Shown: piece by piece, positions 2,443-54,769 of the stretch | How the letters are laid out: each line of letters begins with the position of its first letter | How positions within the stretch are numbered: the first letter of the stretch is position 1 | Source: Candidatus Omnitrophota bacterium | GTDB lineage: Bacteria; Omnitrophota; Gorgyraeia; JAGLLT01 | Assembly (NCBI GenBank): GCA_030632085.1 | Contig: DAOVJY010000001.1 | Span: forward strand, 2,125-66,124 | DNA: 64,000 bases | Reading direction: 5' to 3' | Notes under the pieces: model-generated | What the model saw: the letters and a program-made list of their open reading frames with translations, nothing else | Databases searched by the model: none | What the model was told of the DNA's origin: nothing | Translations under genes and position numbers: made by a program

Positions 2443-2887
2443 CTATATCTCTTTTTATCTTATCAAGGATTCCGTTAACAAATTTACCGGATTCTTCATC
2501 CCCATATTTTTTAGCCAAATTAATCGCTTCATTTATGGAAACCTTAGCCGGAACTTCAGACTCATATATCAATTCATAGGCTGCCATGCGCAGAATATTC
2601 CTATCAACCGTTGCCATTCTTTTTAGCTGCCAATTCTGAGCACTTTTTGAGATTATGTCATCCAGAGTAGATATATTTTCAAGAGCACCCTTCATGAGAG
2701 AATTAGCAAAACTAGCAATGTCGTCCTCTACATCTTTTAAAGGCTCAAAGTCAAATATATTATTAGACCAATCATCATTTCTAATATCTTGCTGGTAAAG
2801 AAATTGCAAAGCTATCTCTCTCGCCTTAGTCCTCTTCCTCAATTTATCTCTCCTGGTATAAGTTTCAAGTATAAAGTCATAAGTCAC
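2414..2887 (-). CDS. nusB: Transcription antitermination factor NusB
   Basis: AREIALQFLYQ motif and ~150 aa size. The GTG start in the ORF track is encoded by the AC-rich repeat tract, so the true start is uncertain. Confidence 0.8.
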   Translation of the reverse strand: MTYDFILETYTRRDKLRKRTKAREIALQFLYQQDIRNDDWSNNIFDFEPLKDVEDDIASFANSLMKGALENISTLDDIISKSAQNWQLKRMATVDRNILRMAAYELIYESEVPAKVSINEAINLAKKYGDEESGKFVNGILDKIKRDIDAGQIKAKS

Positions 2888-3090
2888 AAGTCACAAACAA
2901 GAACTAAGAGCAAATAAAAAACAAACACCAATAATCAAATAGTTGTTTCTGTTTTAGTTTGGTTATTTGAATTTGGTCATTGGTTATTATTTGGTTATTG
3001 TATCTTGTATCTTGTATCTTGTGTCTTATGTCTTGCAACTTGTGTCTTATTTCTTGCGTCTTGTGTCCTGTGACTTATGACTTATTTCTT
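2876..3090. repeat. AC-rich arm (2876-2940) abutting a GT-rich arm (2941-3090): an imperfect large inverted repeat of the tract family
   Basis: aaacaccaataatcaaatag | ttgtttctgttttagtttggttatttgaatttggtcattggttattatttggttattgtatcttgtatcttgtgtcttatgtcttgc. Overlaps the annotated nusB start. Confidence 0.6.
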
Positions 3091-3180
3091 GCTTCTAACT
3101 TAATCCTTAGAGCTCACCATCAGTTTACTAACAGTGAGCGCCTTAATCCCTGTCCGCCTATGGCGGGCTTAATCCTGTTT
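3088..3180. repeat. Hairpin element D, copy 1, followed by a ccgcctatggcgg hairpin
   Basis: ttgcttctaacttaatccttagagctcaccatcagtttactaacagtgagcgccttaatccctgtccgcctatggcgggcttaatcctgtttt, between ribH and nusB. Confidence 0.65.
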
Positions 3181-3188
3181 TAGGATGT

Positions 3189-3653
3189 CTATATAAGCTT
3201 CTGTAAGTTTGCGAGTTCTATGGCACTCATAGCAGCTTGAAAACCTTTATTGCCTTCTTTGGCTCCGGCTCGATCAATAGCTTGTTCTAAATTTTCAGCC
3301 GTTATCACACCGAACGTTAAAGGTTTTTTACCTTTAAGCTGCAAAGCGGCAATACCTTTAGATACTTCAGAAGCCACATAATCAAAATGCGGAGTCTGCC
3401 CCTTAATAACCGCTCCCAGGCAAATTATAGCATCTTCATTGCCTTTTTCAACCAGTTTTGCCGCTACAAACGGAATCTCAAAAGAACCGGGCACCCAGAT
3501 AACTTTAATATCAGTTTCTTTAACGCCATGTCTCTTCAGGCAATCAAGCGCTCCATCAATAAGCCTGGATGTAATGAACTCATTAAACCTTGAAGCTACA
3601 ATAGAAAACTTACTTCCTTTGCCGATTAAATCCGCTGAAACTATCTTTACCAT
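3189..3653 (-). CDS. ribH: 6,7-dimethyl-8-ribityllumazine synthase
   Basis: MVKIVSADLIGKGSKFSIVASRFNEFIT... is canonical RibH. GGAGG RBS upstream. Confidence 0.9.
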   Translation of the reverse strand: MVKIVSADLIGKGSKFSIVASRFNEFITSRLIDGALDCLKRHGVKETDIKVIWVPGSFEIPFVAAKLVEKGNEDAIICLGAVIKGQTPHFDYVASEVSKGIAALQLKGKKPLTFGVITAENLEQAIDRAGAKEGNKGFQAAMSAIELANLQKLI

Positions 3654-3667
3654 GTTTTCCTCCTCGC

Positions 3668-3758
3668 GTTTTGTTTTTTTGTTCTTTACTTGTGTCTTAT
3701 TTCTTGTTTCTTATTTGTTTTTTTGCTTGTGACTGGTGACTTATAACTTATTTCTCTG
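3668..3758. repeat. CT/GT-rich degenerate tract forming the ribBA-ribH intercistronic spacer
   Basis: ttgtttttttgttctttacttgtgtcttatttcttgtttcttatttgtttttttgcttgtgactggtgacttataacttatttctc. Confidence 0.6.
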
Positions 3759-3759
3759 C

Positions 3760-4962
3760 TTACAGGTCCAATAAATGTCCTAATTTTTCTTTTTTTACCT
3801 TTAAATATTTATCATTATATGCAGTTGGTTTTATAACCAACGGAATTCTTTTTGTAATCACAAGGCCGTAACCTTCAAGTCCAACAACCTTTTTAGGGTT
3901 ATTAGTGATTAACTGTATTTTTTTAAGGCCTAAGTCGGCTAAAATTTGCGCGCCGGTACCATAATCTCTCAAGTCCGCTTTAAAACCGAGAGCTTCATTA
4001 GCCTCAACAGTATCTAACCCCTTATCTTGCAGGTGATAAGCTTTAAGCTTGTTAGCTAAACCTATTCCCCTTCCTTCCTGGCGCATGTACAAAAGAACAC
4101 CTTTTTTTCTTTTTTTAATCATATTTAATGACTTTTCCAGCTGCTGCCCGCAATCACATCTTCTCGAAAAAAGCACATCTCCGGTAAGGCATTCCGAGTG
4201 CACCCGCACCAGAACTTCACCGTTTAGTTTCCCCGTAGTCAGGGCAATATGCTCAAAATTATCAATAAGTGCCTTATAAAGATACATTTTAAAATTACCA
4301 AATTTAGTAGGTAGCTTTGTTTGAGTAAGGCGTACTACGAGTTTATCGCGCTTCATCCTGTATTTAATTAAATCTTTAATGGTGCAAATTTTTAATTTAT
4401 GTTTCGCGGCAAACTCTTTGAGTTCGGGCAAGCGGGACATTTCACCATTAGAACTCATAATTTCACATATAACACCGGCTGGGTATAATCCGCCAGCCTT
4501 CATTAAATCGATACAAGCTTCAGTATGCCCGGCTCTAAGTAAAACGCCGCCTTTTTTAGCTTTTAAAGGAAACATATGGCCCGGTTTAATTAAATCCTCA
4601 GGTTTGGTCTTAGGATTAATAAGCGCTTTAATGGTTCTTGCTCGATCAGCCGCCGATATTCCGGTAGTAACATTCTTTTTAGCATCAACAGAAATAGCCC
4701 AATCGGTTCTATAGGCATCCATTTCTCCCTGATGCGAAACATGCCTCATAGGAGGTATTTTCAATTCGTCAAGGCGATTAGCTTCCAAGGGCACGCAAAT
4801 AAGCCCCCTCCCGTAAGTTGCCATGAAATTTATATTATCTTTTGTGGCAAATTCGGCAGCTAAAATAAGGTCACCCTCATTTTCTCGGTCTTCATCATCA
4901 ACCACTATCACCATTTTGCCTTTTTTTAGGTCTTTAATGATATCTTCAATTTTATCTGGCAT
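3760..4962 (-). CDS. ribBA: Bifunctional 3,4-dihydroxy-2-butanone-4-phosphate synthase / GTP cyclohydrolase II
   Basis: 400 aa. DHBP synthase N-half and GTP cyclohydrolase II C-half (CxxC...C zinc motif CDCGQQL). First gene downstream of the FMN riboswitch. Confidence 0.9.
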   Translation of the reverse strand: MPDKIEDIIKDLKKGKMVIVVDDEDRENEGDLILAAEFATKDNINFMATYGRGLICVPLEANRLDELKIPPMRHVSHQGEMDAYRTDWAISVDAKKNVTTGISAADRARTIKALINPKTKPEDLIKPGHMFPLKAKKGGVLLRAGHTEACIDLMKAGGLYPAGVICEIMSSNGEMSRLPELKEFAAKHKLKICTIKDLIKYRMKRDKLVVRLTQTKLPTKFGNFKMYLYKALIDNFEHIALTTGKLNGEVLVRVHSECLTGDVLFSRRCDCGQQLEKSLNMIKKRKKGVLLYMRQEGRGIGLANKLKAYHLQDKGLDTVEANEALGFKADLRDYGTGAQILADLGLKKIQLITNNPKKVVGLEGYGLVITKRIPLVIKPTAYNDKYLKVKKEKLGHLLDL

Positions 4963-5015
4963 ATATTAATCCCTTTTATCCCACGAATAAAATTTGGCGC
5001 GCACTGCGCTCAATA

Positions 5016-5046
5016 AAAAAACCCGGAGTGGTCTCCGGGATATAAA
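5016..5046 (-). terminator. Intrinsic terminator hairpin, the expression platform of the FMN riboswitch
   Basis: Minus-strand cccggagaccactccggg stem followed by tttttttat, located between the riboswitch aptamer and the ribBA start. Confidence 0.55.
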
Positions 5047-5061
5047 TCAATACATTCTAAA

Positions 5062-5185
5062 CAAACCTTCTCTCATCTAGACTTTAACTATTGGCAACGG
5101 AATTTAACCGTTTCTGTCCGCATGAGGCGGACTCGTGGGCTTTTACCACCAGTTGGGAATCGCACCCATATCCCGAAGGCTGTAG
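5062..5185 (-). promoter_or_regulatory. FMN riboswitch (RFN element) aptamer
   Basis: Minus-strand sequence GGGTGCGATTCCCAACTGGTGGTAAAAGCCCACGAG...GGTTAAATTCCGTTGCCAATAGTTAAAGTCTAGATGAGAGAAGG matches the conserved RFN cores (GGGTGAAATTCCC / CGGTGGTA.AGCCC.CGAG / GGT.AAATTCC / AGTC..GATG.GAGAAGG). It lies directly upstream of ribBA. Confidence 0.75.
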
Positions 5186-5187
5186 GT

Positions 5188-5216
5188 ATAATATGTTATA
5201 ATCTTCAATCTGTCAA
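5188..5216 (-). promoter_or_regulatory. Putative sigma70-type promoter of the rib operon (TTGACA-17-TATTAT)
   Basis: Minus strand: TTGACA gattgaagattataaca TATTAT, ~8 nt upstream of the riboswitch. Confidence 0.35.
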
Positions 5217-5270
5217 TGGTTTTATTGTTTTTTTGTAGCTTGACTTTTTTGCGCGGCTTGTATACCATCA

Positions 5271-6449: not shown

Positions 6450-9400
6450 GCAACTACCGCGGGCTCTTTCTCCTCTGACTCAATAAACTTAACTGAAACT
6501 ATTTTAGATATACCGGACTCTTCCATGGTGACCCCATACATAACGTCAGCCATGTCAATCGTCTTCTTGTTGTGCGTTATAATGATAAACTGAGAGCTTT
6601 TAATGAACTCACTCAAGACTCTGGTAAATCTAACCACATTTGCCTCATCCAACGGAGCATCTATTTCATCTAAAACGCAGAATGGACTAGGTTTAACCTT
6701 AAATACCGCAAACAACAAAGCTATAGCACAAAGAGCCTTTTCCCCGCCGGATAATAAACTTATGTTCTGAAGTTTTTTCCCTGGAGGCCTGGCAATAATC
6801 TCAATACCACTTTCTAAAACATTTCTTTCATCAACCAAATATATTTTCGCGCTGCCGCCGCCAAACAATAATTTAAAGAATTCTTCAAAAGTTACCTTAA
6901 TCTGCTCAAAAGTTTCTTTGAACATAGCCGTTGTGGTTTTGTTTATTTTGATAATTGCTTTATGTAATGATTCACGCGCGTCTTCAAGGTCTTGTTTTTG
7001 ATGGCTCAGAAAATCAAATCTATCCCGCAATTCCTGGTGTTCTTCTATAGCCACTAAATTAACAGCTCCCATGCCTTGCAATTTTTTCTTTAAAACATCA
7101 ACTTCTCTTTCAAGCTCATCCCAGTTAATATTATCCTCAAGCTGCAATTCAACCTTAGAAATATTAATCTGATAAGCGTTTTCAACTCTATCGCATAAAT
7201 TTTCTATTTTAAACGAAGATTCGGTATTTTTCACATCGTAAGTGTGTAAATTATTTCTTAAATTATTTAAGTCGTCCTGCTTTTTCCGTAAATTAATATT
7301 ATGCTCCTTAAGCGCGGTAAGTATATTGTTTCTCGCCAAACTCAATGATTGAATTTCGCTTTCAATACCGCTTTTACTTTGATCACATTGTTCATTGTCA
7401 AGCTTTAGCTTTTCAACCTCACATGTAAGTTCCGCTATCTTATGCACTGAAATACTTCTCTCATTGCGGTTATTTTCTAAAACCCCGTTAGACTCTTCAA
7501 TGGAATGCTCAACAACTCCGCACATATCCGCTTTATTGGCATATAACTTATCTATGGATGATAATTCAGTTTTAATCTGAGTAAGACTAACCAGAATATC
7601 CTGGATTTTTTGGTTGCTTTCTTTAATAACAGATTCGTTTTCTGAAATTAAAGCTTGCAGCACGACGCTTCTTTCCTTTGTTTCATGAAGCTTTTGCTCA
7701 TTTTCAATCTGTCTCCGGGAAAGTTTAGACCGCTCTTCTTGCGACTCTTGGGCTTCAGCGTCAATTAACAAAACTTCTTCTTCAAATTTCTTATGCTCAC
7801 CGTTAAGCGCGTTAAGCTTTGATTCAAAATTAGCCTTTTTAATCTCATCTTGATGAATAACATCTTCCAATGCCCTTATTTTGTCTTCCAGTAATTTTAT
7901 CTCTGTTTCTTTTTCAACTGTAAGTTTTTTCTTTTGTTCAACTTCAGTTGACTTAATTTTTAATTCATCCGCGAGTTTATTAATTCTAGCATCCCGCCCG
8001 ATAAGGCTGGTCTCCTCGGAAAGATTACAAGCTCCACCGGATATCCTTGCCAGAGAATAAATCTCACCCGCTTTAGTTATAATTCTTATTTTCGGAGATA
8101 ATTGACTATTCTTAAGTATGCTTTTTGCCTCAGAAGCGCTGTTAACTATATATGTATCTTTGGCAACGTATTTAATAATACCGCTATATCTTTCGTCAAC
8201 ATCAATAAAATCACATAAAGGGCCCAAGGTTTGCGCTTTCAAATTGGCGTCGGGCCGCAATTCAAGATGGTCAATTTTATCAAGTATAAGAAAATTAATA
8301 CGCCCAAGCCCCCCGGCATCAATATGCTCAATAGCTTCTTTTAGCCGCTCAACATTGTCAATAATAATATCCTGAGCATAGCTGCCTATGGCTATTTCAG
8401 CACAAATCTCATAACCATCCTTTACTTTTATCAAATTAGCTAAGGAATCACAAATCCCAACAAAAGGTAATTCTTGCGACTTAGCTTGCATGAGTAATGA
8501 TTTAACGGAATTTGAATAACCCTCGTATCTTTCTTTTAAATCTTTGAGAAAATCAAGTTTCGATTTTAAGGATGTCATTACATGCTGCAGTTCATCAATC
8601 TCGTTTTTTAATTTATTAAAAGCATTTCTGTCACTTTCCAGATTTTCCGATAAAGTTATCTTCTCTCTTTTAAGATCATCCAAATCGGTGTTTATGCGTT
8701 CATACTCCGCGTCTAAATTCTTCTTCCTTTCATCGATAAGCTCTTGCTCTTTTAATGTGTCATCTTTATCAATGTTCAATCTTCTTAGGCGAGAATTAAT
8801 ATTCTGGAGATTAGCCTTAAGCTCCACTAACTCGTTATTAAATTTAGTTTCTTCAGCCGCTAAATTAATTAACTCATCTTTACCTTCTTTAATCTCACGA
8901 GTTTTTTCTTCTACGCCTCGAGATAATTCATTTTGCGTTGTTTCAAACTCAGTTAACTTACTGTTTTTTTCAGTTGTGCTGCTTTCAATTTTCTCGAGTT
9001 CTTCTTTAGCCAGCTTTATTTGTTCATTTAATTTTGAAAGCTTCTCATCTGAAGCGCTGCTTTGCGTATCTAAATAGTTAATCCTGTCATTTAGCTCGGC
9101 GGAACGCTCTTTGTTCAAATCAATTTTTGATAAATTCTTCTCTAAGATTGAACTGACTTCAACTTTTTTTGAATGGAATCCGGATAAGCGTTCCTCAAAG
9201 TTATTAAGTTTTTGCCTGAGACTCTCGACCTGAGCATCCATCTCCTTTGTGCTACTCAAAAGAGCGGATTCTTTATCTTTAAGATCGCTTTTCCGGTTAT
9301 CGCTTGATAATCTTTGCTTTTTTAAATCAATAAATTTTCTATAAGCGGATTTAATTTCTAAACTTTTTAATGTTTCAAATTGCTCCTTATAACGCTCAGC

Positions 9401-17687: not shown

Positions 17688-17745
17688 AATCCCCTTTTAA
17701 TCAACTTATACCCTTATATGGCACAAGCAAGATACAAACAATATT

Positions 17746-17798
17746 CAATCCTTCGATACTGCTCAGGATTGACCCTGAGTAAATTGAAGGGTCAAATA
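17746..17798. repeat. Nested palindromic element B, copy 1 (caatccttcgatactgctcaggattgaccctgagtaaattgaagggtcaaata)
   Basis: Near-identical copies at 45316-45367 and, inverted, at 54433-54485. Contains nested inverted repeats (ccttcRat/attgaagg, ctcagg/cctgag, ttgaccc/gggtcaa). Confidence 0.7.
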
Positions 17799-17802
17799 AC
17801 CA

Positions 17803-17915
17803 TACAAGAATAGCGACTTATGACTTATGACTTTGCACTTGCGTTTTGCATCTTGTCTTTTGTTTTTGTTTTTTTGCTTTTCATTTCTTGTGGCTTATGA
17901 CTTGTGTCTTGTGAC
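17803..17915. repeat. Degenerate CT/GT-rich tandem tract (cttatgacttatgact...cttgtgtcttgtgacttg)
   Basis: Member of a tract family also at 2876-3090, 3668-3758, 36091-36168, 36528-36810, 41575-41652 and 54320-54550. Confidence 0.7.
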
Positions 17916-17943
17916 TTGTTTTTTATACGTTAAACGCTATTTT

Positions 17944-18939
17944 TCAGCTGTGATTATTTTTTATTGAATCAATAATATGTTGATTTATATCATGTATTAC
18001 AGCTTCCGCGGCCACCCTGATGCCATTCTTTATAGCCTTAGCGGAAGAACGGCCGTGCCCTACAATGCAAATACCATCTATGCCTAAAAGCGGCGCGCCT
18101 CCATGTTCGGCGTAATCCACTTTTCTTTTTAACTTTTTAAAAGCCGGCATACTTAAAAGGCCGCCAATCATCGTAAGTAAGTTGCTGCTTAATTGCTGCT
18201 TAAATAAGCCGGCTACAGTTTCAGCTACGCTTTCTAAGACTTTTAAAATAATATTGCCGGTAAATCCGTCGCAAACAATTACATCCGCCTTGCCCGAAAA
18301 TATATCGCGGCCCTCAACATTGCCTACAAAGTTTAAATTGCTGTTACTCAATAAATCATGAGCCAATTTAATAAGTTCATTGCCTTTAGACTTCTCCTCA
18401 CCAATGCTAAGCAAACCTACTTTTACCTCTTTTTTTGCCAAAACATAACGGCAATAAACACTGCCCATAACGGCATATTGAAACATATGTTCCGGCTTGC
18501 AATCAACATTAGCTCCCACATCAATCAATAATGAATTATTGAGAAGCGTTGGCAAGACAACGCTGATCCCGGGCCTATCTATAGCCTCGAGAGTCCTCAG
18601 CTTTAGAGCCGCGCTGCAAACAACGGCCCCTGTATTTCCGGCGGTAAATAACGCGTCCGCCTTTTTTTCTTTTACAAGGTTAACAGCTACATTAATTGAA
18701 GAGTCCTTCTTCTTTCTGATAGTAGCTGCCGGTGATTCATCCATGCCTATAATTTCAGAGGCATGCTTAATAGATATCGTAGAAGGCACTTTCTTATGCC
18801 GAGAAAGCTCTTTTTCAATAGAATACTGTTCCCCTACAAGTATAATTTCATATCCATATTCAGAAGCTGCTAAAATTGAACCGTCTATAGCATTGTGCGG
18901 CGCGAAATCACCACCCATAGCATCTACCGCTATTATCAT
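17944..18939 (-). CDS. plsX: Phosphate:acyl-ACP acyltransferase
   Basis: 331 aa, PlsX family. Conserved rpmF-plsX-fabH context. Confidence 0.9.
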   Translation of the reverse strand: MIIAVDAMGGDFAPHNAIDGSILAASEYGYEIILVGEQYSIEKELSRHKKVPSTISIKHASEIIGMDESPAATIRKKKDSSINVAVNLVKEKKADALFTAGNTGAVVCSAALKLRTLEAIDRPGISVVLPTLLNNSLLIDVGANVDCKPEHMFQYAVMGSVYCRYVLAKKEVKVGLLSIGEEKSKGNELIKLAHDLLSNSNLNFVGNVEGRDIFSGKADVIVCDGFTGNIILKVLESVAETVAGLFKQQLSSNLLTMIGGLLSMPAFKKLKRKVDYAEHGGAPLLGIDGICIVGHGRSSAKAIKNGIRVAAEAVIHDINQHIIDSIKNNHS

Positions 18940-28067: not shown

Positions 28068-28212
28068 AACAACGATTATTTATTTTGCAACTTAAATAAA
28101 AAAGGCGCTAACTTTTTATCAATCAGCACCTTTAACATTTGTCACATTTTTTGCTTATTTTTTTAGTTGCTTATAAACAAAAGCTTAACCCATTACAACT
28201 TTAACCTTATGC
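28068..28212. repeat. Direct repeat copy A (~145 bp) containing a degenerate terminator hairpin
   Basis: ~93% identical to 33903-34052 (aacgattatttattt..aaataaaaaaggcgctaactttttatcaatcagc.cctttaa..tttgtcacattttttgcttatttttt..ataaacaaaagcttaacccattacaactttaacctta). Confidence 0.7.
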
Positions 28213-28421
28213 GGTAAAAGTAAACCCCTCGCCTCACCTTTGTAAAAGAAATTCTGCAAGGTGGGAGATTGATTTTCTTTATCCGTTGCTTCTGCGAAGA
28301 AATCAAGAATGCGCTCAGATCTTTCTTTTTCTCCTTTTAAAATATATGCTATAGCTACTAAAGAATTATTGAAGGTTTGAAACTGACTTCCTTCCATAGA
28401 AGGGAGCAATTTCTTATCCAT
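28185..28421 (-). CDS. Hypothetical 78-aa ORF, probably a C-terminal remnant of a larger gene
   Basis: Its last ~8 codons and the downstream hairpin fall inside the duplicated 145-bp segment. No recognisable domain. Confidence 0.25.
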   Translation of the reverse strand: MDKKLLPSMEGSQFQTFNNSLVAIAYILKGEKERSERILDFFAEATDKENQSPTLQNFFYKGEARGLLLPHKVKVVMG

Positions 28422-30151: not shown

Positions 30152-32358
30152 TATAAGACCCTTGTTGGCGGTAAATAGGTTATATACACATCCTCTAAGA
30201 CCGGCGTTTCTCTAAATTGCTGGTCACCCGGGTTATACCAGTACCAGCGATCACCCGGATAACTCTGGTTTGGGTCAATCTCAAAATTGGCTTTATACTG
30301 AATCTGGGTTCCTGTCAGGTTAACTGCTCCCTGTGTCTCTAAGCCGGGTTCAGCCGGACTCCAGTTTAAGCCGCCGTCTGTTGATAGTTGAAAATAAACC
30401 TTTTCAGTAGCCGAACTGGCACTGCTTGGAATAGTCACCGTGCCCCAAACCGCGCCCCACTCTACATCAGAATCAAAAGCGGCTGTTGGTAACTCGGTAG
30501 ATACAAAATGGGCATAATCTCCGTTGCCGTCAGGGCTTTTAGGAATTATCCTTATATTGTCAAAACGCGCCTGCACACCCCAACCCCAAAAACCAACCGC
30601 TCCGCTAATTACGCCCCCCACATTATCAGTTCTAAAGGAGCCCTTTAAACTATGGCTATTGTTTCTAAAATAGTACTTTACAGTTGAACCATCGCAGACA
30701 AACTTTACCCTCATCACCGTCCACCAATAATAATTAGGCCAAATAGTGGCGAAAGAGGAATGCCAAGGATACCATCTCTCGTGAGATGTGAAATGGAGAT
30801 GCCGCCACCAGGTTTCGTCTTTTATGCCTGATGCAAGAGTAGTCCTGTATGCAGGAAATGCTACATACCACGGAGGAGCGCCGCGGGCTCTACAACTACT
30901 CACACTATCTTCCTGTAAACTGTAAGAAAAGTCGGTCCATGTCATGCCGGATGAGGGGCTACTGCTTTCAAGCCAGACCGGACTCCAATAACTACCGGTT
31001 GTAAGCTCCAATTCTTTATCTGCTCCCGGCCTTAAGTCAGCATCTGTTATACTATACAAAGCTCCTCCCCATACATTTCCATCGGCACTTCCGGTGCCGC
31101 GTTTAGCCCAACTCGTATTGTTCATAAAAAAAAGAGCATTTTGCCCGCCTTCATCAAAATCATCCCAAAAACCTATCTTTATAGAGTCCGGGATAGTCTC
31201 AAAAGCGGACGAACCGCTATCATACAAAGTCTGTTGGTCTCCTCTTACCGGGCAATTATTAAGAGCGGTTACTTTCCAGGCAATAGGAAGCACAGCGCCG
31301 TCACTACCCTGAAAATCACTCTTCTTTGTCTGATTCTCGATGCCGTAGATATCTACAACCGCTTCTATCTTCTTCTCGGCAATTATTCTTATCTTCAAAG
31401 AGGTAGCATATAATATTCCTGTGGATGTCAGGGTGTATTTTCCTCCGGAATGAAAACAGAAGTCAGTTGTATAAGGAGAGGGTTTTAGCCTGTTGGGGTT
31501 AGCGTTGCTTTTAATATTATCTCTATCGCTGCTATTTAGAGGGGGAGTGGTTGTGACCATATTAATAAAATTATCAAATTTAGACCAGCTATCAAAAGAA
31601 TTGGTCTGTCTTTCAGCAATAATCTCATCTGCCAAACTATCTGCCCTCGGACCATTAATTACCCCTTCTAAAACCGCCTTTAATACTTCCTTTGAAGCAG
31701 TATTTATATTAATCGGGCATCTTGCCTCAGAACCGCCTGCGCTATTTATGGTGTTTGGATCCCGGTAAGAATAAATAGTAATGTCATTTTTGATGCTCTG
31801 ATAGACTGCGTCATCTATACCCGCGGCCCGCATGATCTGTTCTTTAGTTTCAAACGGACGAGCGCTAATAATCGCGTCCGCTCTTGTATAGTCGCCATCA
31901 CCCAGTAAACTCTTTAATAAATTCCTATTAACTTTATCTATATTTATCTTTCTCTGTTCATCTTCAATATCTACCGAGTAAAAACCGCGATTCACGCAAA
32001 GAGTACCGTCTGAATAATTACTTATGCTGCCCGTATAAATAAAGTTAACCTTGCCGTCAACCTTTAACCGGCTGATGGCATCGTTAATACCCGCCTCAGC
32101 TAAATATGTAGCTTTAGCGCCATTTATATAATTTGATGCAATAGCGTGCCCTAAACGCGCGTTTACAACAACAGCAAGGCAAATAAGCGTAAGAATTCCT
32201 AAAATACCTACGGTTAGTATTAATACATATCCTCTGCTATTATTTGCCTTTGTCATCATATCAACCTCAGTCAGGTCACGGTCAAAATCACTTATTTCTA
32301 AAATTATTCCCTTAACGCTCAAATAAAAAATCAAGACACTCGCTAAAAGAATTAACAA
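30136..32358 (-). CDS. GspK/PilX-like minor pseudopilin fused to a C-terminal beta-jelly-roll (LamG/DUF1080-like) domain
   Basis: Likely true start near 32259 (MMTKANNSRGYVLILTVGILGILTLICLAVVV hydrophobic pilin-like helix, then YLAEAGINDAI as in PilX_N/GspK). INTASKEVLKAVLEGV resembles the GspK helix-hairpin-helix. The ~450-aa Trp-rich C-terminal region ends in a ...ARFDNIRIIP jelly-roll motif. Confidence 0.55.
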   Translation of the reverse strand: MLILLASVLIFYLSVKGIILEISDFDRDLTEVDMMTKANNSRGYVLILTVGILGILTLICLAVVVNARLGHAIASNYINGAKATYLAEAGINDAISRLKVDGKVNFIYTGSISNYSDGTLCVNRGFYSVDIEDEQRKINIDKVNRNLLKSLLGDGDYTRADAIISARPFETKEQIMRAAGIDDAVYQSIKNDITIYSYRDPNTINSAGGSEARCPININTASKEVLKAVLEGVINGPRADSLADEIIAERQTNSFDSWSKFDNFINMVTTTPPLNSSDRDNIKSNANPNRLKPSPYTTDFCFHSGGKYTLTSTGILYATSLKIRIIAEKKIEAVVDIYGIENQTKKSDFQGSDGAVLPIAWKVTALNNCPVRGDQQTLYDSGSSAFETIPDSIKIGFWDDFDEGGQNALFFMNNTSWAKRGTGSADGNVWGGALYSITDADLRPGADKELELTTGSYWSPVWLESSSPSSGMTWTDFSYSLQEDSVSSCRARGAPPWYVAFPAYRTTLASGIKDETWWRHLHFTSHERWYPWHSSFATIWPNYYWWTVMRVKFVCDGSTVKYYFRNNSHSLKGSFRTDNVGGVISGAVGFWGWGVQARFDNIRIIPKSPDGNGDYAHFVSTELPTAAFDSDVEWGAVWGTVTIPSSASSATEKVYFQLSTDGGLNWSPAEPGLETQGAVNLTGTQIQYKANFEIDPNQSYPGDRWYWYNPGDQQFRETPVLEDVYITYLPPTRVLYWRNL

Positions 32359-33193: not shown

Positions 33194-33628
33194 TTAATGT
33201 CTTGAGTTACTCTGATAGGCCGCGTCATCTATACCCGCGACCTGCCTTATCTGCTCCTTAGTCACAAGCGGATAAGCGGCAATAATCGCGTCCGCTCTTG
33301 TATAGTCGCCATCCCCCAACAAACTCCTTAAAAGGTTTCTGTTGGCATCATCTAAATTAACCTTCCTCTGCTCATCTTCAATAACCACGGTATAAGAACT
33401 AACGCCATCTAAAAACTGCTCGACTCCATTAATAGAAATATTGCTATCAGAATAGTCAAATTTAAGTTTAGCATCAGCCCTTAACAGGCTAATGGCATCA
33501 TTAATACCCGCCTCAGCTAAGTATTTAGCTTTAGCTCCATCCATATATACAGCCACCTCATTCTGCTCTAAGCGCGTATTCATAGCAAAAGAGAGGCTGA
33601 TAAGCGTAAGCACAGCTAAGATGCCCAC
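33194..33628 (-). pseudogene. Truncated paralog (N-terminal ~140 aa) of the GspK/PilX-like protein
   Basis: YLAEAGINDAISLLRADAKLKF...VVIEDEQRKVNLDDANRNLLRSLLGDGDYTRADAIIAAYPLVTKEQI matches the 740-aa protein. DNA 33215-33665 is ~75% identical to 31800-32255. Confidence 0.5.
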
Positions 33629-33902
33629 GGTTAATATTAAAGCAATACCGGGCTTATTGTTATTTGTTAAAAGAATATTTTTTATCGTTTTCTCCTGGTA
33701 TAAAGTTCACCCTATACAGATAGAATAATTCGCTCTTATGGCCCGCCCGAAGCGGAAACAATTGAAATGACTTATTATTAAAATAATTTAGGAGCAATTA
33801 AATGTTTTATCAAACAATCAAAAAAAGGGTTTAATAATATCATGATCCTATTCATCTGTCAATAATAAATTATTAACTTTTGATAGTAAATTTTTGCTTC
33901 CT

Positions 33903-34052
33903 AACGATTATTTATTTCGCGACTTAAATAAAAAAGGCGCTAACTTTTTATCAATCAGCGCCTTTAATATTTGTCACATTTTTTGCTTATTTTTTTTAGT
34001 TGTTTATAAACAAAAGCTTAACCCATTACAACTTTAACCTTATACGGTTTTT
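33903..34052. repeat. Direct repeat copy B (~145 bp) with intact terminator hairpin downstream of the 662-aa gene
   Basis: Same sequence as 28068-28212. Minus strand: aggcgct-N15-agcgcct stem followed by TTTTTT. Confidence 0.7.
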
Positions 34053-36085: not shown

Positions 36086-36090
36086 ATATT

Positions 36091-36168
36091 GTTTATTTCT
36101 TGCTTCTTGCTTGTGCCTTTAAACTTGTGTCTTGTGACTTATTTCTTGTGACTGGTGACTTGTTTATT
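36091..36168. repeat. CT/GT-rich degenerate tandem tract
   Basis: cttgcttcttgcttgtgcc...cttgtgtcttgtgacttatttcttgtgactggtgacttg, directly upstream of the minus-strand gene at 34097-36085. Confidence 0.6.
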
Positions 36169-36488: not shown

Positions 36489-36527
36489 AATTTAACTCTA
36501 AGCCTTTTACAGTCTACAATCTATGGT

Positions 36528-36810
36528 CTATGTCTAAAGTCTGTTTTTGTTTTTTTGTTTCTTGTCTCTTGTTTTTTGTTCTTTTTTTTGTTTTTGCTTT
36601 GTGCTTTTACTATGAGCCATCAGCTAAGAGCTACTTGCTTTTTGTTTTTTTGCTTTTTCTATCCGCTATCCGCTCTTCGCTGACAACTGATAACTGATAG
36701 TTGTAAGCTCTATGCTTTTTTGCTTTTTGTTTTTTGTTTTTGCTTGTGCCTTGTGCCTTGTGACTTGTGACTTGTTTCTTGTGACTTGTCTCTTATGACT
36801 TTATACTTGA
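36528..36810. repeat. Long CT/GT-rich degenerate tandem tract with embedded agccatcagcta / atccgctatccgctc motifs
   Basis: ttgtttcttgtctcttgttttttg...cttgtgccttgtgccttgtgacttgtgacttgtttcttgtgacttgtctcttatgactt. Confidence 0.65.
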
Positions 36811-36849
36811 ATATATTACCATAAAAATTAGGCCTAGGTCAAATTTTTG

Positions 36850-41493: not shown

Positions 41494-41574
41494 TTTATTT
41501 ACCTATGCCGTTATATAAAACATTGTACATAAAGTAACTATATCATTTATTTACTATGAAATCAAATGAAGAGA

Positions 41575-41652
41575 AAGCAAGACACAAGACACAAGACACA
41601 AAACACAAGTCATAAGTCATAAGTCATAAGTCACAAGCAAAAAACAAAAAGC
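41575..41652. repeat. AC-rich degenerate tandem tract (same family, opposite orientation)
   Basis: gcaagacacaagacacaagacacaaaacacaagtcataagtcataagtcataagtcacaagc on the plus strand, upstream of the plus-strand MATE gene. Confidence 0.65.
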
Positions 41653-41768
41653 TTACAGCTCTCAGCTATCAGCCATCAGCTAAACGCTAAAAAAATAGCG
41701 GTAAAAAGGAAAGTCAAAAATATATTCCTTGAAATCTCCTGAGTTATATAAGATAATAAATCCTAATT

Positions 41769-43151: not shown

Positions 43152-45352
43152 TGGAAATCAAAGAGCTGTGCGAAAAGTTTAATTTAACACAAGAAGTAGC
43201 TGATATTCTCGCTAAAAAAGGCTATAAAAAGTTACATCCTCCTCAAGTGACGGCCTTAAAATCAGGCGTCTTAGAAGGTAAAAACTTTGTACTTGCCATG
43301 CCGACAGCCAGCGGCAAAACACTTATCGCTGAATTAGCTATGGTAAAATCAATTTTATCTAAAAACGGTAAGGCCTTATATGTTGTTCCTTTAAGGGCAT
43401 TAGCCAGTGAAAAATACGAAGACCTCAAAGAAAAGTATTCACAGTTGGGGCTTAAAATAGCTTTAGCTACAGGCGACTATGATATACCATCAAAGTCTTT
43501 AGCAAATTATGATATTATTGTATCTACTTCGGAAAAAGTTGACTCACTCTTAAGATTCAGGGCTCGGTGGCTGACTGAAAGTTTAACTATAGCCGTTTTT
43601 GATGAAATTCACCTTATAGATGACAGTTCCAGGGGCCCAACATTAGAAATCCTTATAGCCAGGCTCAAACAAGCTAACTCCTCCATACAGCTTGTTGGCT
43701 TATCGGCTACTATAAAAAACGCGAACCAAATCGCCTCCTGGCTTGAGGCTGAGTGCTTCTTGAGCAGCTGGCGGCCGGTTAAACTCAAAGAAGGTGTCTA
43801 TTATGATAAGGTTATCTATTTTGAAGATGGAGATAAAAGGGAGGTTTCCGGCTCCTCAACCACGGGCATTAACTCTCTCTGCATTGAAACAATCCGGGAA
43901 AACGGCCAGGTCTTAGTTTTTGTAAGCACCAGGCGTTCCACTCAAGCGGAAGCCAGACGCATCGCGACTATCTTAAGTAAAGCCTTAACTGACGAAGAAA
44001 AAATCATCTTGAATCACCTTTCTAAAAAAATAAAAACCTCTTCCTCTGAATCCACTAAAGTAGCGATTGAATTAGCCGAGTGTATAAATAGCGGCGTTGC
44101 CTTCCATCATGCGGGCCTAACTCACAATCTAAGAAAACTCGTTGAAGATAACTTTAAGAAAAATATTATAAAGGTTATTTGCTGCACACCTACCCTGGCC
44201 GCGGGCGTCAACTTACCGGCCAGAAGAGTAATCATCAGAGATTATAAAAGATTTGAATCAAGTATCGGCTCTCATTATATCGCGGTTTTTGAATATAAAC
44301 AAATGCGCGGACGCGCGGGAAGGCCTAAATATGATACCTATGGCGAGTCCATATTAATCGCCAAGTCGCAAGATGAAAAAGATGCTCTTTTTGAAGACTT
44401 TGTCCACGCTGAACCTGAACCTATTATTTCAAAATTAGGACAAGAAAACGTCCTTTGCACGCATATACTTTCATCTATCGCGGCCGGATATGTACATACT
44501 GAAAAAGGCCTTATGGATTTTTTATCAAACACCTTCTTCGCCATCCAGGAAGACCCGCAAGTACTTTGCTATTTGACTGATAAAGTTATTGATTTTTTAT
44601 GCTTTGAGGAACTAATCACCTCCGATAATGGAAAATACAGAGCAACGGCTTTTGGCAACCTGATCTCAAGGCTATATATTAACCCTCAAACAGGGGTTAT
44701 TATCAGAAAAGGCCTTAAGAACTCAATGGAAATACATCCCTCAACTATAGCCTTATTACATTTAATCAGCAGTTGCCCTAATATGCCTAATATAAGATTA
44801 AATAAAAAGAATAAAGATGAAGTAGAAATGTTTTTCGGCCTCAACAGCGATAATCTTTTACTGCCGTTTCAAAGATACTACAGCCATTCGGACTATAATA
44901 TGTATTTACAATCGTTAACCACCGCTTTAATGTTCAATGAATGGGTGGAGGAAACAAAAGAAGACAGTATCTGCGATAAATATCCTGTAGGCCCGGGAGA
45001 CATCAGGCGACTAATCGAAACAGCCAAATGGCTTTTATATTCCAGCGAACAGATAGCCGCTCTTTTTAACATCAATATTGTCGCCTCTAAGCTCCAAGCC
45101 CTTCAAAAAAGAATTCAATATGGCATAAAAGAAGAACTGCTTTCATTGGTCAGCATTAGAAGCGTGGGGCGTGTAAGGGCCAGAAACTTATTTTCCGCCG
45201 GCATAAAAAACCCCTTTGATATTAAGAGAGTTAATCTTGACGCCCTCATAAAAGCGGGCGGAATCGGTAAGACGGTTGCCGCGGGAATTAAGAAACACGT
45301 CGAAAGTGATAAATTCAATCCTTCAATACTGCTCAGGATTGACCCTGAGTAA
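43151..45352 (+). CDS. Ski2-like superfamily-2 DNA helicase of the Hel308/Hjm type
   Basis: Motif I MPTASGKT, motif II FDEIHLIDD, SAT motif LSATIKN, motif VI QMRGRAGR, winged-helix/ratchet region and C-terminal HhH domain (VSIRSVGRVRARNLFSAGIKNPFD). ~730 aa as in archaeal Hel308. Its start ATG overlaps the MATE stop (taATGg). Confidence 0.8.
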   Translation: MEIKELCEKFNLTQEVADILAKKGYKKLHPPQVTALKSGVLEGKNFVLAMPTASGKTLIAELAMVKSILSKNGKALYVVPLRALASEKYEDLKEKYSQLGLKIALATGDYDIPSKSLANYDIIVSTSEKVDSLLRFRARWLTESLTIAVFDEIHLIDDSSRGPTLEILIARLKQANSSIQLVGLSATIKNANQIASWLEAECFLSSWRPVKLKEGVYYDKVIYFEDGDKREVSGSSTTGINSLCIETIRENGQVLVFVSTRRSTQAEARRIATILSKALTDEEKIILNHLSKKIKTSSSESTKVAIELAECINSGVAFHHAGLTHNLRKLVEDNFKKNIIKVICCTPTLAAGVNLPARRVIIRDYKRFESSIGSHYIAVFEYKQMRGRAGRPKYDTYGESILIAKSQDEKDALFEDFVHAEPEPIISKLGQENVLCTHILSSIAAGYVHTEKGLMDFLSNTFFAIQEDPQVLCYLTDKVIDFLCFEELITSDNGKYRATAFGNLISRLYINPQTGVIIRKGLKNSMEIHPSTIALLHLISSCPNMPNIRLNKKNKDEVEMFFGLNSDNLLLPFQRYYSHSDYNMYLQSLTTALMFNEWVEETKEDSICDKYPVGPGDIRRLIETAKWLLYSSEQIAALFNINIVASKLQALQKRIQYGIKEELLSLVSIRSVGRVRARNLFSAGIKNPFDIKRVNLDALIKAGGIGKTVAAGIKKHVESDKFNPSILLRIDPE

Positions 45353-45367
45353 ATTGAAGGGTCAAAA
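45316..45367. repeat. Nested palindromic element B, copy 2
   Basis: caatccttcaatactgctcaggattgaccctgagtaaattgaagggtcaaaaa. It encodes the last ~12 codons (NPSILLRIDPE) and the stop of the helicase ORF. Confidence 0.7.
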
Positions 45368-45417
45368 AAACTAGGCCAAAAAAGAGATAAAAAAACGGTC
45401 GCTGTCCCTATTTTACA

Positions 45418-51469: not shown

Positions 51470-51502
51470 CTCACATCTCCAATTAAATAACAGTTATTAA
51501 GG

Positions 51503-52069: not shown

Positions 52070-53475
52070 TAAATTAATTCCGCCTCTTCACCTGTTTGAG
52101 GCAGATGAGCGTTATAACCCCGCCTTAGCAGGGAATCATGTAAACTCGTTGACTGATCTTCATCACCATGAACAATATATATATCTTTCAAAGATGTATT
52201 TGACTTTCTTACATAGTTAATCAAATCTTCTTTATCAGCATGGGCGCTAAACGCGTTTATTACCTCAACTTCCGCTTTAAGATTATATTCAACACCGAAG
52301 ATCTTCACTCGCGGATACCTCTCAACAAGGCGCCGTCCTAATGTATTTTTTGCCATATAGCCCACAATTAAAACCATATTCCTTTCATCCTCGATATTAT
52401 TCTTTAAGTGATGCAGTATTCTTCCGGCTTCACACATACCTGAAGCGGAAATAATTATCATGGGCCTTTTATCATCGTTAATCTTCTTTGATTCCTCAAC
52501 GCTCCTCGTAAGATGAAGGTTCTTTATGCCAAAAGGGCTCTCATCATTATAAAACATAGCTCGAGCTTCTTCGTCAAAGCATTCAACGCTCTTTTTAAAA
52601 ACACCGGTCACATTAACAGCCATGGGGCTATCTACATATATCGGCAGCTCGGGAATTCTTTTGCTCTTCATCAGCTCACCCAGATAATAGATTATCTCCT
52701 GCGATCTACCTAAGGCAAACGAAGGAATAATCACCTTGCCTCCGCGCTCCACCGTCCGATTGATATAAAATGTTAAATCATCCTCGGCGTACTTAATATC
52801 TCCACGAAGCCTGCCGCCATAAGTACTCTCAATTATTAAATAATCCAAAAAGCCTTTGGGTAAAAAAACCGGGTCTTTCAATAGAGGCATATTAGCCCTG
52901 CCTAAATCAACGGCATATGCCAGGTTAATCTCTTTTCCGCCCTTTGCCTTAATGTTAAGCACAACTATAGCCGAGCCAAGAATATGCCCGGCATCTATAA
53001 AAGTACAGCTGATATCTTCAGTCACCTGAAACTTACTATTATAAGCCTTGCCTTCAAATAAGTCGAGTGAGAGTTCGGCAATCCGGGTTGTATAAAGCGG
53101 CTTTCGCAAGGGCAGCCCTCTCCTTTTATTTATCTTATTTAAAAATTTAATGTTTTCTTCCTGTATATGGGCTGAATCTAAAAGCATAATTTTACACAAA
53201 TCAGCTGTAGCTTCAGTCGCGTATATCTTATTTTTAAAACCTTGCTTGGTGAAATTAGGGATATTGCCGCAATGGTCTATGTGGGCGTGGGAAACTATCA
53301 AGGCGTCTATCTTGGACGGCTTAAAAGCGAATTCACTGTTTATTCGATAGTAATCAGCTCTTTTACCTTGAAATAAACCGCAATCAATTAGAACCTTGCT
53401 TTTAGGAGTCTCAATCAAATGAGTGGAGCCGGTCACGGTTCTGACCCCTCCGCAAAATTTAACTTTTACTGCCAT
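52069..53475 (-). CDS. MBL-fold beta-CASP family metallo-hydrolase (putative RNA-processing nuclease)
   Basis: HAHIDHCG motif 2, further His/Asp motifs and a C-terminal beta-CASP-like region. 468 aa. Confidence 0.65.
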   Translation of the reverse strand: MAVKVKFCGGVRTVTGSTHLIETPKSKVLIDCGLFQGKRADYYRINSEFAFKPSKIDALIVSHAHIDHCGNIPNFTKQGFKNKIYATEATADLCKIMLLDSAHIQEENIKFLNKINKRRGLPLRKPLYTTRIAELSLDLFEGKAYNSKFQVTEDISCTFIDAGHILGSAIVVLNIKAKGGKEINLAYAVDLGRANMPLLKDPVFLPKGFLDYLIIESTYGGRLRGDIKYAEDDLTFYINRTVERGGKVIIPSFALGRSQEIIYYLGELMKSKRIPELPIYVDSPMAVNVTGVFKKSVECFDEEARAMFYNDESPFGIKNLHLTRSVEESKKINDDKRPMIIISASGMCEAGRILHHLKNNIEDERNMVLIVGYMAKNTLGRRLVERYPRVKIFGVEYNLKAEVEVINAFSAHADKEDLINYVRKSNTSLKDIYIVHGDEDQSTSLHDSLLRRGYNAHLPQTGEEAELI

Positions 53476-53487
53476 ATTACGCCTTTC

Positions 53488-53958
53488 TTATCGAGTTTTT
53501 TTTATATTTTTAAAACGTGGTAATATTTTATAAGCATCAAAATTATACCACATTCTATAGAATAATGAATATGGTAAAAAAGCTTTTCGAAAGGTGCTAT
53601 CAATAATCAGGTGCCCCAACATCCCCAAAGAAAGGGCCATGGAATACTTGCCCCACCCAAAAAAGAGGCCCGTTATATAAATTAATATAATTAATTCCCA
53701 AGAATGAAAATATACATATATTTTTCCTGATTTTAAATAACCGATAAAAACAAACTTTTTTAAATCAAATTTAAATCCGTAATGGCTAAAGTAATCTATG
53801 AAGTGATCTAAATCTATTAAAATACCGCCAATTACCACCAGAACAACCAATATAAAGCTTGAATAAAATTTGTATATCAATAATGATAATATTGATGTTA
53901 CGATTAAATGAGTTGATAAATCAACGGCAAGATGCTTATATTTATTAGTGCTAATCAA
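53488..53958 (-). CDS. Membrane-bound metal-dependent hydrolase, YdjM/DUF457 family
   Basis: 156 aa, 4-5 TM, conserved His residues (HLAVD..., GHLIIDS). Confidence 0.55.
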   Translation of the reverse strand: MISTNKYKHLAVDLSTHLIVTSILSLLIYKFYSSFILVVLVVIGGILIDLDHFIDYFSHYGFKFDLKKFVFIGYLKSGKIYVYFHSWELIILIYITGLFFGWGKYSMALSLGMLGHLIIDSTFRKAFLPYSLFYRMWYNFDAYKILPRFKNIKKTR

Positions 53959-54292
53959 AATTCAAATCTTCCCTTTTGATTACTTTTATACCTGAGTCTT
54001 CATCTTTTTCTTTTAAAACATCTACGATATCAAACTTCTCACCTGTCGCCATACGAGAGTCAAGAGAAGGATAGTCTCTCTGAATTGCTTGAACTTCATT
54101 CTTGTTTAAAACTATTATCATAATGGAGGTTTTAACCGCCATTTTTTCATCATCCTCTTTTATTATCCGGCCTTCATAAATATTACCGTTTTTAAGATGA
54201 ATTATATCGGCCGCCGCCGCGCTCACAAGAAACAAACAAAGAAAACATACCATTAATACAATTCTCTTCATATCTTTCACCTCATATATCAA
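53951..54292 (-). CDS. Small secreted protein sharing an N-terminal beta domain with the TPR-like protein
   Basis: Signal peptide; IIHLKNGNIYEGRIIKEDDEKMAVKT parallels IIVLKDGAEIRGEVISGNDSSITVKS of the 414-aa protein. Confidence 0.35.
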   Translation of the reverse strand: MIYEVKDMKRIVLMVCFLCLFLVSAAAADIIHLKNGNIYEGRIIKEDDEKMAVKTSIMIIVLNKNEVQAIQRDYPSLDSRMATGEKFDIVDVLKEKDEDSGIKVIKREDLNFD

Positions 54293-54319
54293 GACGTTCG
54301 CCTTCGCTCACTCTAAGAA

Positions 54320-54550
54320 TTAAGACACAAAATATAACCAATCATCAATAATCAAGTTACAAGATACAAACAATATTCAAATTCCAACATCCAAGCACCA
54401 AACTGCTATCCTTGCTTTGCTTCGGTTTGATTATTTGACCCTTCAATGTTAATCAGGGTCAATCCTGAGCGCAATCGAAGGATTGAATTTGTTATGGTTA
54501 TTGGTCATTGTTTGGTTATTGTCTCTTGTATCTTGTTTCTTGTTTTTTTT
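54320..54550. repeat. Composite repeat: AC-rich arm, palindromic element B copy 3 (54433-54485, inverted), GT-rich arm
   Basis: Left arm aagacacaaaatataaccaatcatcaataatcaagttacaagatacaaacaatattcaa. Right arm ttgttatggttattggtcattgtttggttattgtctcttgtatcttgtttcttg, which is roughly the reverse complement of the left arm and nearly identical to 2970-3010. Confidence 0.65.
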
Positions 54551-54677
54551 ATCCGCTCTAAAAATTAAGTTTTTTTATTTAATCCCGTGTTCAAATCCTG
54601 CTTTTAACTTAATCCCATTTTTTAGCACTTAGCATATAGTAAGTTTACAAATAATTATCTTTTTAGTTTTTTGTCTT

Positions 54678-54750
54678 TTGCTTCTAACTTAATCCTTAGA
54701 GCTCACCATCAGTTTGTTGGTGGTGAGCGCCTTAATCCCTAATCCTATTT
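54678..54750. repeat. Hairpin element D, copy 2 (cttctaacttaatccttagagctcacca...tggtgagcgccttaatccctaatcc)
   Basis: Copy 1 at 3088-3180. Central 6-8-bp inverted repeat gctcac(ca)/(tg)gtgagc flanked by repeated cttaatcc motifs. Differences between the copies change stem length. Confidence 0.65.
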
Positions 54751-54769
54751 TATTATATCATATAAAGAA

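Follow-up and report, generated by a model that had tools for sequence, protein, structure and literature searches.

Arrays of tandem heptamers have been known since 1990, and their origin and role are still unsettled. Mazel and co-workers reportedly described one of the short tandemly repeated repetitive (STRR) sequences, STRR2, as TTGGTCA in 1990, and Elhai and co-workers are said to have found in 2008 that small dispersed repeats are nested in heptamer arrays of Nostoc. Escherichia coli carries bacterial interspersed mosaic elements built on repetitive extragenic palindromic sequences (BIMEs/REP), modular combinations of short palindromes and linkers that are found in intergenic regions, operon spacers included. 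The present work concerns a 64,000-nt stretch of a Candidatus Omnitrophota contig (DAOVJY010000001.1; the whole stretch analysed is called the window below) in which seven spacers are occupied by degenerate tracts, AC-rich on one strand and GT-rich on the other. We propose, with a probability of about 0.55, that these tracts are an Omnitrophota example of the STRR or long simple sequence repeat (long-SSR) class, that is, intergenic heptamer repeats with the unit AAGWCAY which turn over quickly and are filtered by what their site tolerates.

Among long simple repeats, those with a 7-nt unit are the commonest class in many bacteria, and slippage of the polymerase is their proposed cause (Mrazek et al. 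2007, cited after PMC4679880 and PMC4692102). In marine Beggiatoaceae, TAACTGA arrays are mostly "forward" and proximal to the start of genes (MacGregor 2015, PMC4679880). The same study reports TAACTGA repeats in ribosomal operons as well, with hosts among Beggiatoaceae, Cyanobacteria and Bacteroidetes; in Microcystis other heptamers are interspersed and the orientation varies, and in Gramella and Aequorivita close relatives have shorter, repeat-free spacers. In Xanthomonas, some GGGAATC arrays form inverted pairs, and the arrays differ from one close relative to another (Rehm et al. 2015, PMC4692102).

Heptamer tracts of the window and the same sites in related strains

The seven tracts listed in a preliminary description of the window were all recovered at or near the same positions and correspond to degenerate tandem arrays with a 7-nt period. 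Tandem Repeats Finder (TRF) returned periods of 7, 14 and 21 at each locus, and the seven spacers scored 0.42-0.63 for period-7 self-match, the window mean being 0.27 and the other 14 spacers giving 0.23-0.34. From 53 in-phase units the consensus AAGWCAY was derived (A 92%, A 92%, G 89%, W, C 68%, A 89%, Y); AAGTCAC (9), AAGTCAT (8) and AAGACAC (7) are the most frequent of these units. The two-unit motif AAGNCAYAAGNCAY, searched with at most one mismatch, has 34 matches in the window for 1.14 expected, a number that none of 100 shuffles reached; all 34 are intergenic and fall within six of the seven tract spacers, while the seventh, near 54 kb, has no such match and contains period-7 arrays of other units. 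Sequence, TRF, self-match and motif count thus confirm the initial observation, which is real and far beyond chance. The claim of a modular intergenic family also holds; the seven loci all lie in the non-coding 10.9% of the window (G+C content 38%, ca. 89% coding), with a chance of ca. 2e-7 if loci are taken as independent. Two more loci occur in the flanking sequence, of which ca. 13 kb was examined. Within the tracts other heptamers are found, namely TTGGTYA, CAGCTAT, GCGGATA and two copies of TAACTGA, the first of which we take to resemble STRR2. Beyond simple arrays, the tracts are mosaics of heptamer arms and small dispersed hairpin modules.

The gene calls (ribBA, ribH, nusB, plsX, fabH, a glucoamylase-like gene, AcrB, the outer-membrane factor OEP and MATE) are correct. 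Relatives with ca. 96-98.6%, 95%, 90%, 87%, 78%, 75% and 72% nucleotide identity were compared, and for five of the seven spacers at least one of them (72-98.6% identity) has a short sequence devoid of a tract. The clearest cases are in the rib operon. Between ribBA and ribH, a 95-nt AC-rich array (3665-3759, minus strand) fills the interval from the stop codon of ribBA to the Shine-Dalgarno site of ribH (AGGAGG, 3659-3664), in a spacer of 106 nt that measures 11 nt in strain L003 (98.6%). The ribH-nusB spacer (2843-3188, minus strand) is 346 nt long in the window, 10 nt in L003 and again 10 nt in the syntenic region of L126 (78%). Strains with 96-98.6% identity have spacers of 10-11 nt at both rib sites, and in L003 the stop codon of each rib gene runs directly into the next ribosome-binding site (RBS). 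Because the compact ribH-nusB junction is also present in the 78% outgroup, the compact state is ancestral and the additional ca. 330 nt of the window are an insertion. The ribBA-ribH spacer of this outgroup (L126:9887-10000) holds a different, non-heptamer filler of ca. 105 nt with its own hairpins, so that the gap between stop codon and RBS has been occupied independently.

Other sites behave in the same way. The plsX-fabH spacer (17688-17943, minus strand) is 256 nt in the window and 20 nt in L211 (90%). Between AcrB and ORF106, the gene that precedes the glucoamylase-like gene, the spacer measures 361 nt in the window (tract at 36489-36811, minus strand), 174 nt in L210 (ca. 95%) and 66 nt in L209 (72%), where the tract is missing. 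Both ends are common to the 174-nt and 361-nt alleles, which differ by an internal block of ca. 180 nt and by an indel of 13 nt, or about two units, to which unit substitutions are added. Between ORF106 and the glucoamylase-like gene, the 82 nt of the window (36086-36167, minus strand) correspond to a tract with different units in L210 and to 24 nt without tract in L209. The 15-20 kb syntenic stretches of L126 and L211 have no array where the window has one, and the L207 contig (87%) ends exactly at the start of the ORF106 leader tract. L126 possesses an AC-to-GT tract of its own (17843-18100), containing other heptamers (for example AGCCATG) and located after an integrase-like gene, in a spacer that differs from the tract sites of the window.

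Strains only a few per cent apart have thus gained, lost or remodelled tracts. In operon spacers the insert is placed after the stop codon and ahead of the Shine-Dalgarno site, which is retained; a Shine-Dalgarno-like site is clear in four downstream genes and weak in ORF106. Presence or absence with sharp boundaries, at sites that are otherwise conserved, is seen for the rib spacers (L003, L126) and for plsX-fabH (L211), and the tracts look like derived insertions, not conserved regulatory parts.

Anatomy, shared modules and strand composition

Two kinds of tract occur, the single-arm type, AC-rich on one strand, and the hairpin type, in which an AC arm is followed by a GT arm. The first comprises the ribBA-ribH, ORF106-glucoamylase, ORF106 leader and OEP/MATE tracts and the second those of ribH-nusB, plsX-fabH and the spacer near 54 kb; just past the end of the window, a contig begins in a further GT arm. 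The facing arms had been announced at two loci and are indeed present, the number of such loci in the window being three.

Among single-arm tracts, that of ribBA-ribH has TRF periods of 7, 14 and 44 and its spacer RNA is predicted to be unstructured (minimum free energy, MFE, of -0.1 kcal/mol over 106 nt), so that the RBS would stay exposed. The ORF106-glucoamylase tract is likewise an AC-sense array placed between stop codon and RBS. The putative ORF106 leader tract, also AC-sense, starts ca. 5 nt past the -10 box of a predicted sigma-70 promoter (36813-36842, minus strand; TTGACC, 18 nt, TG-TAATAT) whose -35 and -10 columns are invariant in the window, L210, L207 and L209; it was found by a consensus scan in which promoter-like sites were no commoner than in shuffled sequence. 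This tract encloses an inner block of TCAGTTA, GCGGATA and AGCTGAT heptamers that folds into its own hairpin, and the two tandem TAACTGA copies (36683-36700) form one arm of this hairpin, antisense to the genes.

The OEP/MATE tract (41566-41700) lies in a divergent spacer and has its AC-rich strand on the plus strand, with AAGACAC and AAGTCAT units followed by CAGCTAT units. It is flanked by predicted divergent promoters, for MATE at 41729-41757 (plus) and for OEP at 41565-41537 (minus), and the sequence of the former, conserved in L208 and L209, places the tract upstream of the promoter. If these predictions hold, the tract is probably outside the MATE mRNA, and the only case able to separate gene direction from replication direction would then be lost. 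The preliminary description was right in giving this plus-strand tract an AC-rich plus strand, while its position ahead of the conserved predicted promoter speaks against a leader of MATE. At this spacer (41494-41768 in the window), L208 (75%; 7741-8503) and L209 (72%; 6767-7539) have, between MATE and the efflux operon OEP-AcrB, a full tetR gene accompanied by palindromic repeats that resemble operators. In L207 this gene is truncated and follows a copy of the 3' end of AcrB, and in the window it is missing.

In the ribH-nusB tract, the sense order is a GGATTAAG/hairpin module (3188-3095), an AC arm (ca. 3094-2940) and a short GT arm (ca. 2935-2860) that stops ca. 10 nt short of the nusB RBS. 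The inverted arms at 2866-2896 and 3061-3091 are 84% complementary, and a long imperfect stem is predicted on both strands (sense MFE -94.5 kcal/mol, z-score -8.4; antisense z-score -5.6). The flanks carry an imperfect 13-nt direct repeat, GAAGCTTATATAG and GAAACTTATACCAG, part of which overlaps an end segment that recurs in the 36.8-kb tract; as the only candidate for a target-site duplication it is ambiguous, and no clear duplication was seen in the flanks of the ribBA-ribH tract. The plsX-fabH tract consists, in sense order, of an AC arm, a nested 57-nt hairpin module (17743-17799) and a short GT arm adjoining fabH, and its sense fold is weak (z-score -1.3). The third hairpin tract is a composite spacer of 498 nt (54272-54769) with an AC arm (54320-54400), a GT arm (54490-54550), an inverted copy of the 57-nt module (54449-54503) and CTTAATCC/hairpin modules (54550-54745), for which a long imperfect stem is predicted (z-score -3.7). 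A long RNA stem is thus predicted from the facing arms of ribH-nusB and of the 54-kb spacer, but not for the plsX-fabH sense strand or for the single-arm tracts.

The two rib tracts were rightly placed inside one operon, downstream of its FMN riboswitch (RF00050; 5061-5184, minus strand; 95.1 bits, E = 1.2e-20) and of a promoter-like site. The riboswitch unit (5022-5216) is composed of this site (5216-5188; TTGACA, 17 nt, TATTAT), the aptamer and a terminator-like hairpin (5039-5022) followed by a T-run. At gathering thresholds, Rfam reported the FMN riboswitch only and no match in any tract, and no tRNA was found in the window. A promoter in the end of the GT arm (TTGTGA, 17 nt, TATACT; 2896-2868 and 36779-36807) was considered and rejected, as it matches 9 of 12 positions and such sites are no commoner than in shuffles.

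Several non-periodic segments are common to different loci. The 20-nt end segment TTCAAGTATAAAGTCATAAG occurs in the tracts at 2866 and 36801, and a 70-nt module at 54671-54740 is 87% identical to 3082-3151. The 57-nt hairpin module exists in three copies with up to 96% identity and in both orientations, two nested in the heptamer tracts described above and one standing alone at the 3' end of a helicase gene (45313-45369, plus strand), where it provides the stop codon; this last copy is 96% identical to that of plsX-fabH and its DNA fold has a z-score of -3.8. Whole tracts have no common length, and the 57-nt and 70-nt sub-modules behave as discrete dispersed units. The 70-nt module is made of repeated CTTAATCC (GGATTAAG) motifs between short G+C-rich hairpins, and Logan contigs end inside or beside it. 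Two other repeats of the window are unlike the tracts: a dispersed repeat of ca. 145 nt (28071-28215 and 33903-34048; 96% and 90% over two segments) that has a terminator-like hairpin and is unrelated to the heptamers, and a segment of ca. 430 nt (31796-32223 and 33210-33640; 74-79% identity) present at the 5' end of a 740-aa gene resembling type II secretion system K (T2SS-K) and across a 144-aa open reading frame (ORF) without Pfam match, which is probably a partial gene duplicate.

As to strand, AC-type units in the six co-directional spacers are distributed 13/4, 7/0, 9/2, 7/0, 14/0 and 4/5 between sense and antisense. The rule first put forward, by which the AC-rich strand is the sense strand of the downstream gene at all seven loci, is hence clean at three of these spacers and true of the majority of units at two, each of which carries a GT arm adjoining the downstream start; it breaks down at the balanced 54-kb spacer. 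Just outside the window, a tRNA-Pro gene is followed by a further tract of AC sense. Genes of the window are mostly on the minus strand (48 of 53) and GC skew is negative all along, indicating a single replichore with genes co-oriented with replication; the AC-sense bias is real, yet it concerns few loci and is confounded with strand. Composition differs sharply between the two strands. Start codons number 0 in sense and 10 in antisense in the ribBA-ribH tract, 0 and 13 in that of ORF106-glucoamylase, and 3 and 35 or 1 and 17 in the other two single-arm tracts, the GT strand having a start codon every 10 nt or so. No frame of AAGTCAC is closed by a stop codon, whereas TGA appears in each frame of GTGACTT. 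A GT arm is never seen without a neighbouring AC arm, with which it usually pairs as a hairpin.

In two other Omnitrophota (L122:1542-1569 and L025:3251-3278), a perfect AAGTCAC array occurs in frame, AC sense, in the same loop of a conserved enzyme gene; one of the two proteins, which share 66% identity, thereby contains QVTSHKSQVT and the other QVTSHKSQDT, and the peptide of a third orthologue differs at this position.

Origin of the tracts, cross-phylum distribution and competing explanations

The tolerance-filtered repeat that we favour would arise in several steps. A tract would be seeded by copying of sequence from another locus, as the non-periodic segments common to tracts (TTCAAGTATAAAGTCATAAG and the 70-nt and 57-nt modules) suggest, and would then change by unit-sized indels and nested insertions, a step that is seen between strains. 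It would persist only where little harm is done, between stop codon and RBS, between transcription start and RBS, or between divergent promoters. The AC-sense bias could represent a survival filter, AC RNA being nearly free of AUG, GUG and UUG and of structure, and composition may thus account for the bias in Omnitrophota through the scarcity of sense start codons and the open frames of AAGTCAC. The effect of a tract may be passive, a longer spacer uncoupling the translation of neighbouring genes and the hairpin type adding a stable stem. The fallback offered in the preliminary description, a decayed family of miniature inverted-repeat transposable elements or minisatellites, comes nearer to this evidence than its functional proposals.

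Several points weigh against the reading just given. No mobilising enzyme and no clear terminal or target-site signature accompany the tracts, the one imperfect 13-nt flanking repeat being ambiguous, and the filter is inferred from composition. Conservation within the unit is highest at positions 1-3 and 6, which could reflect a binding protein, and the distance of 10-35 nt that separates several hairpins, of the window and of other phyla, from the RBS downstream would fit a role in mRNA. Directions of transcription and replication are fully confounded in the window by the gene bias and uniform GC skew noted above. Finally, the exact heptamer is met in genomes of 32% to 71% GC, so that slippage alone is insufficient.

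This last point comes from a scan of species-representative genomes for three AAGTCAY units, which returned at least 120 stretches from more than 10 phyla; contrary to what had been claimed, the unit of the family is consequently not genome-specific. Among the matches listed, to which the pair and orientation counts below refer, hosts include Acidobacteriota, Bacteroidota, Cyanobacteriota, Omnitrophota, Fibrobacter, Elusimicrobia, groups of the candidate phyla radiation, Gammaproteobacteria, Dialister, Planctomycetes and others, with loci spanning 32% to 71% G+C; isolate genomes, including a complete Psychrobacter chromosome, are represented. Many of these arrays are hairpins in which AAGTCAC units, a loop of 20-60 nt and GTGACTT units follow each other, located in convergent, divergent and co-directional spacers, and no conserved loop was found among the cross-phylum hairpins, loops being alike only within one genome. 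Inverted pairs run AC-to-GT in 15 cases and GT-to-AC in two. AAGNCAY inverted pairs were recorded at L007, L010, L014, L022, L030, L050, L064, L080, L092, L095, L105, L123 and window 2874-3090, in Acidobacteriota, Elusimicrobia, Gammaproteobacteria, Peribacteria and Omnitrophota. In nine loci of other Omnitrophota genomes, the AC strand is always the sense strand of neighbouring genes (9/9). Sense and antisense counts elsewhere, approximate because ORF calling was crude, are 2/11 in Gammaproteobacteria, 1/7 in Cyanobacteriota, 14/14 in Bacteroidota and 5/3 in Acidobacteriota. A universal orientation rule was rejected, the crude census over all phyla giving 21 sense and 23 antisense and being informative only when split by phylum. 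A phage vector was also discarded, with only five matches in viral contigs.

An active role in cis, with AC leaders acting as ribosome standby sites, S1-type enhancers or targets of a protein binding heptamer RNA and with hairpins acting as processing or stabilising stems, is in our opinion unlikely. It would agree with the sense bias of the window and of the nine other Omnitrophota loci, with the location of tracts within operons or leaders, with an RBS left exposed after an unstructured tract and with the uneven conservation within the unit, and a similar role was proposed for TAACTGA repeats (PMC4679880). These features have to be set against the comparison of strains, in which tracts are missing from the same housekeeping operons at 96-98.6% identity and in outgroups, an absence from near-identical strains that argues for their being dispensable, and in which their length and composition vary freely. 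Orientation is moreover reversed or random in other phyla with the AAGTCAY unit, arrays are alike in convergent, divergent and co-directional spacers, and one tract of the window (OEP/MATE) is probably untranscribed. The CA-rich translational enhancer and the RNase III or operon-polarity element of the preliminary description accordingly find no comparative support, tracts being absent from close strains and outgroups. As for Rho loading, a rut site was rejected for the one tract sampled, which is A-rich (ca. 50%) and has only ca. 23% C.

We regard with more doubt the possibility that the tracts represent non-autonomous mobile elements and owe their orientation to the way in which they insert, for instance by single-strand transposition of the IS200/IS605 or REP/RAYT kind, with AC tracking the leading strand. 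Presence/absence polymorphism with sharp boundaries is what such elements would leave, end segments and modules are shared and dispersed in both orientations, the AC strand is on the G-rich (leading) strand in all tracts of the window but one, and the 15 to 2 polarity of inverted pairs would be explicable by mechanism. On the other side, the window has no transposase, RAYT or integrase-like gene (Pfam found no transposase among 30 window proteins), and no protein family recurs beside the arrays of the 120 listed loci, where all-against-all clustering of 753 ORFs gave no family in more than six loci. Terminal repeats and target duplications are not consistent, and the tract at 41.5 kb is opposite in strand on the same replichore.

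A broader and equally doubtful idea is that AAGTCAY arrays were left by a single sequence-specific system able to write or move the heptamer into genomes of more than 10 phyla, the typical form being a 5'-(AAGTCAY)n, 20-60 nt loop, (RTGACTT)n-3' hairpin. It would fit hosts ranging from 32 to 71% GC, in-frame arrays in conserved enzymes and the 15 to 2 polarity of inverted pairs. As AC-to-GT polarity reads alike on both strands, gene direction is not its cause; it would fit synthesis of an AC first strand by a putative enzyme, followed by fold-back priming. An artefact of assembly or sequencing of this metagenome-assembled genome (MAG) can be dismissed as extremely improbable, for although Logan short-read contigs often stop inside or beside tracts, an ENA scaffold of the source sample (ZHAN22-2_SAMN18200499, 99.97% identical to the window) and the Logan contigs of one run agree at 100% with the window over the covered parts of tracts, related tracts occur in other samples, and the same arrays exist in isolate genomes, including the complete Psychrobacter chromosome.

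Significance and relation to described repeats

The main interest of the heptamer repeats described here lies in unusually clean pairs of filled and empty sites within essential operons (rib, fab) of strains only 1-4% apart, which show that arrays arrive as insertions rather than grow in place, where they are tolerated and that their turnover is fast. Two regularities emerge from the wider scan, namely a strand bias that depends on lineage, sense in Omnitrophota and antisense in Gammaproteobacteria and Cyanobacteria, and the cross-phylum AC-to-GT polarity of inverted pairs; the latter, together with the identity of the unit across phyla, is most worth following. In practice, tracts break short-read assemblies and lengthen operon spacers, which matters for the annotation of MAGs and for operon prediction.

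A literature search for the AAGWCAY unit itself found no report of it. The tracts resemble cyanobacterial STRR/long-SSR heptamers in their tandem 7-nt units, many intergenic loci, mixture of units and length differences between close strains, and differ from them by an Omnitrophota host, the dominance of AAGWCAY, the many AC-to-GT inverted pairs and the nested hairpin modules. The canonical picture of STRR1-3 in a cyanobacterial host does not apply here, the closest named homologues of the AcrB (65-69% identity) being all from Candidatus Omnitrophota. With TAACTGA repeats (PMC4679880), the tracts have in common an intergenic location, a lineage-dependent orientation, the occupation of housekeeping operons, repeat-free relatives and a scattered cross-phylum distribution; unlike these, they stop short of the start codon, ahead of a Shine-Dalgarno site that has been kept. 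The forward, start-proximal and usually Shine-Dalgarno-less layout of TAACTGA is not that of the window, where only two antisense copies of this heptamer occur. GGGAATC/GGGGAYT repeats of Xanthomonas and Nostoc (PMC4692102) are comparable as intergenic heptamers that include some stem-loop inverted pairs and vary in the same spacer between relatives, but they are G-rich and quadruplex-forming, whereas the AC strand is here G-poor and allows no quadruplex. A modular, intergenic organisation that extends to operon spacers and contains nested hairpin modules of 20-60 nt is shared with BIMEs/REP and with the nested repeats of Nostoc; the tracts are set apart from BIMEs/REP in that no REP-like consensus palindrome or RAYT-type gene was seen and that their bulk is a 7-nt periodic array. 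Judged by sequence features, the tracts belong with the heptamer repeats, whose 7-nt unit, dispersed intergenic loci and strain-level change in length they all display.

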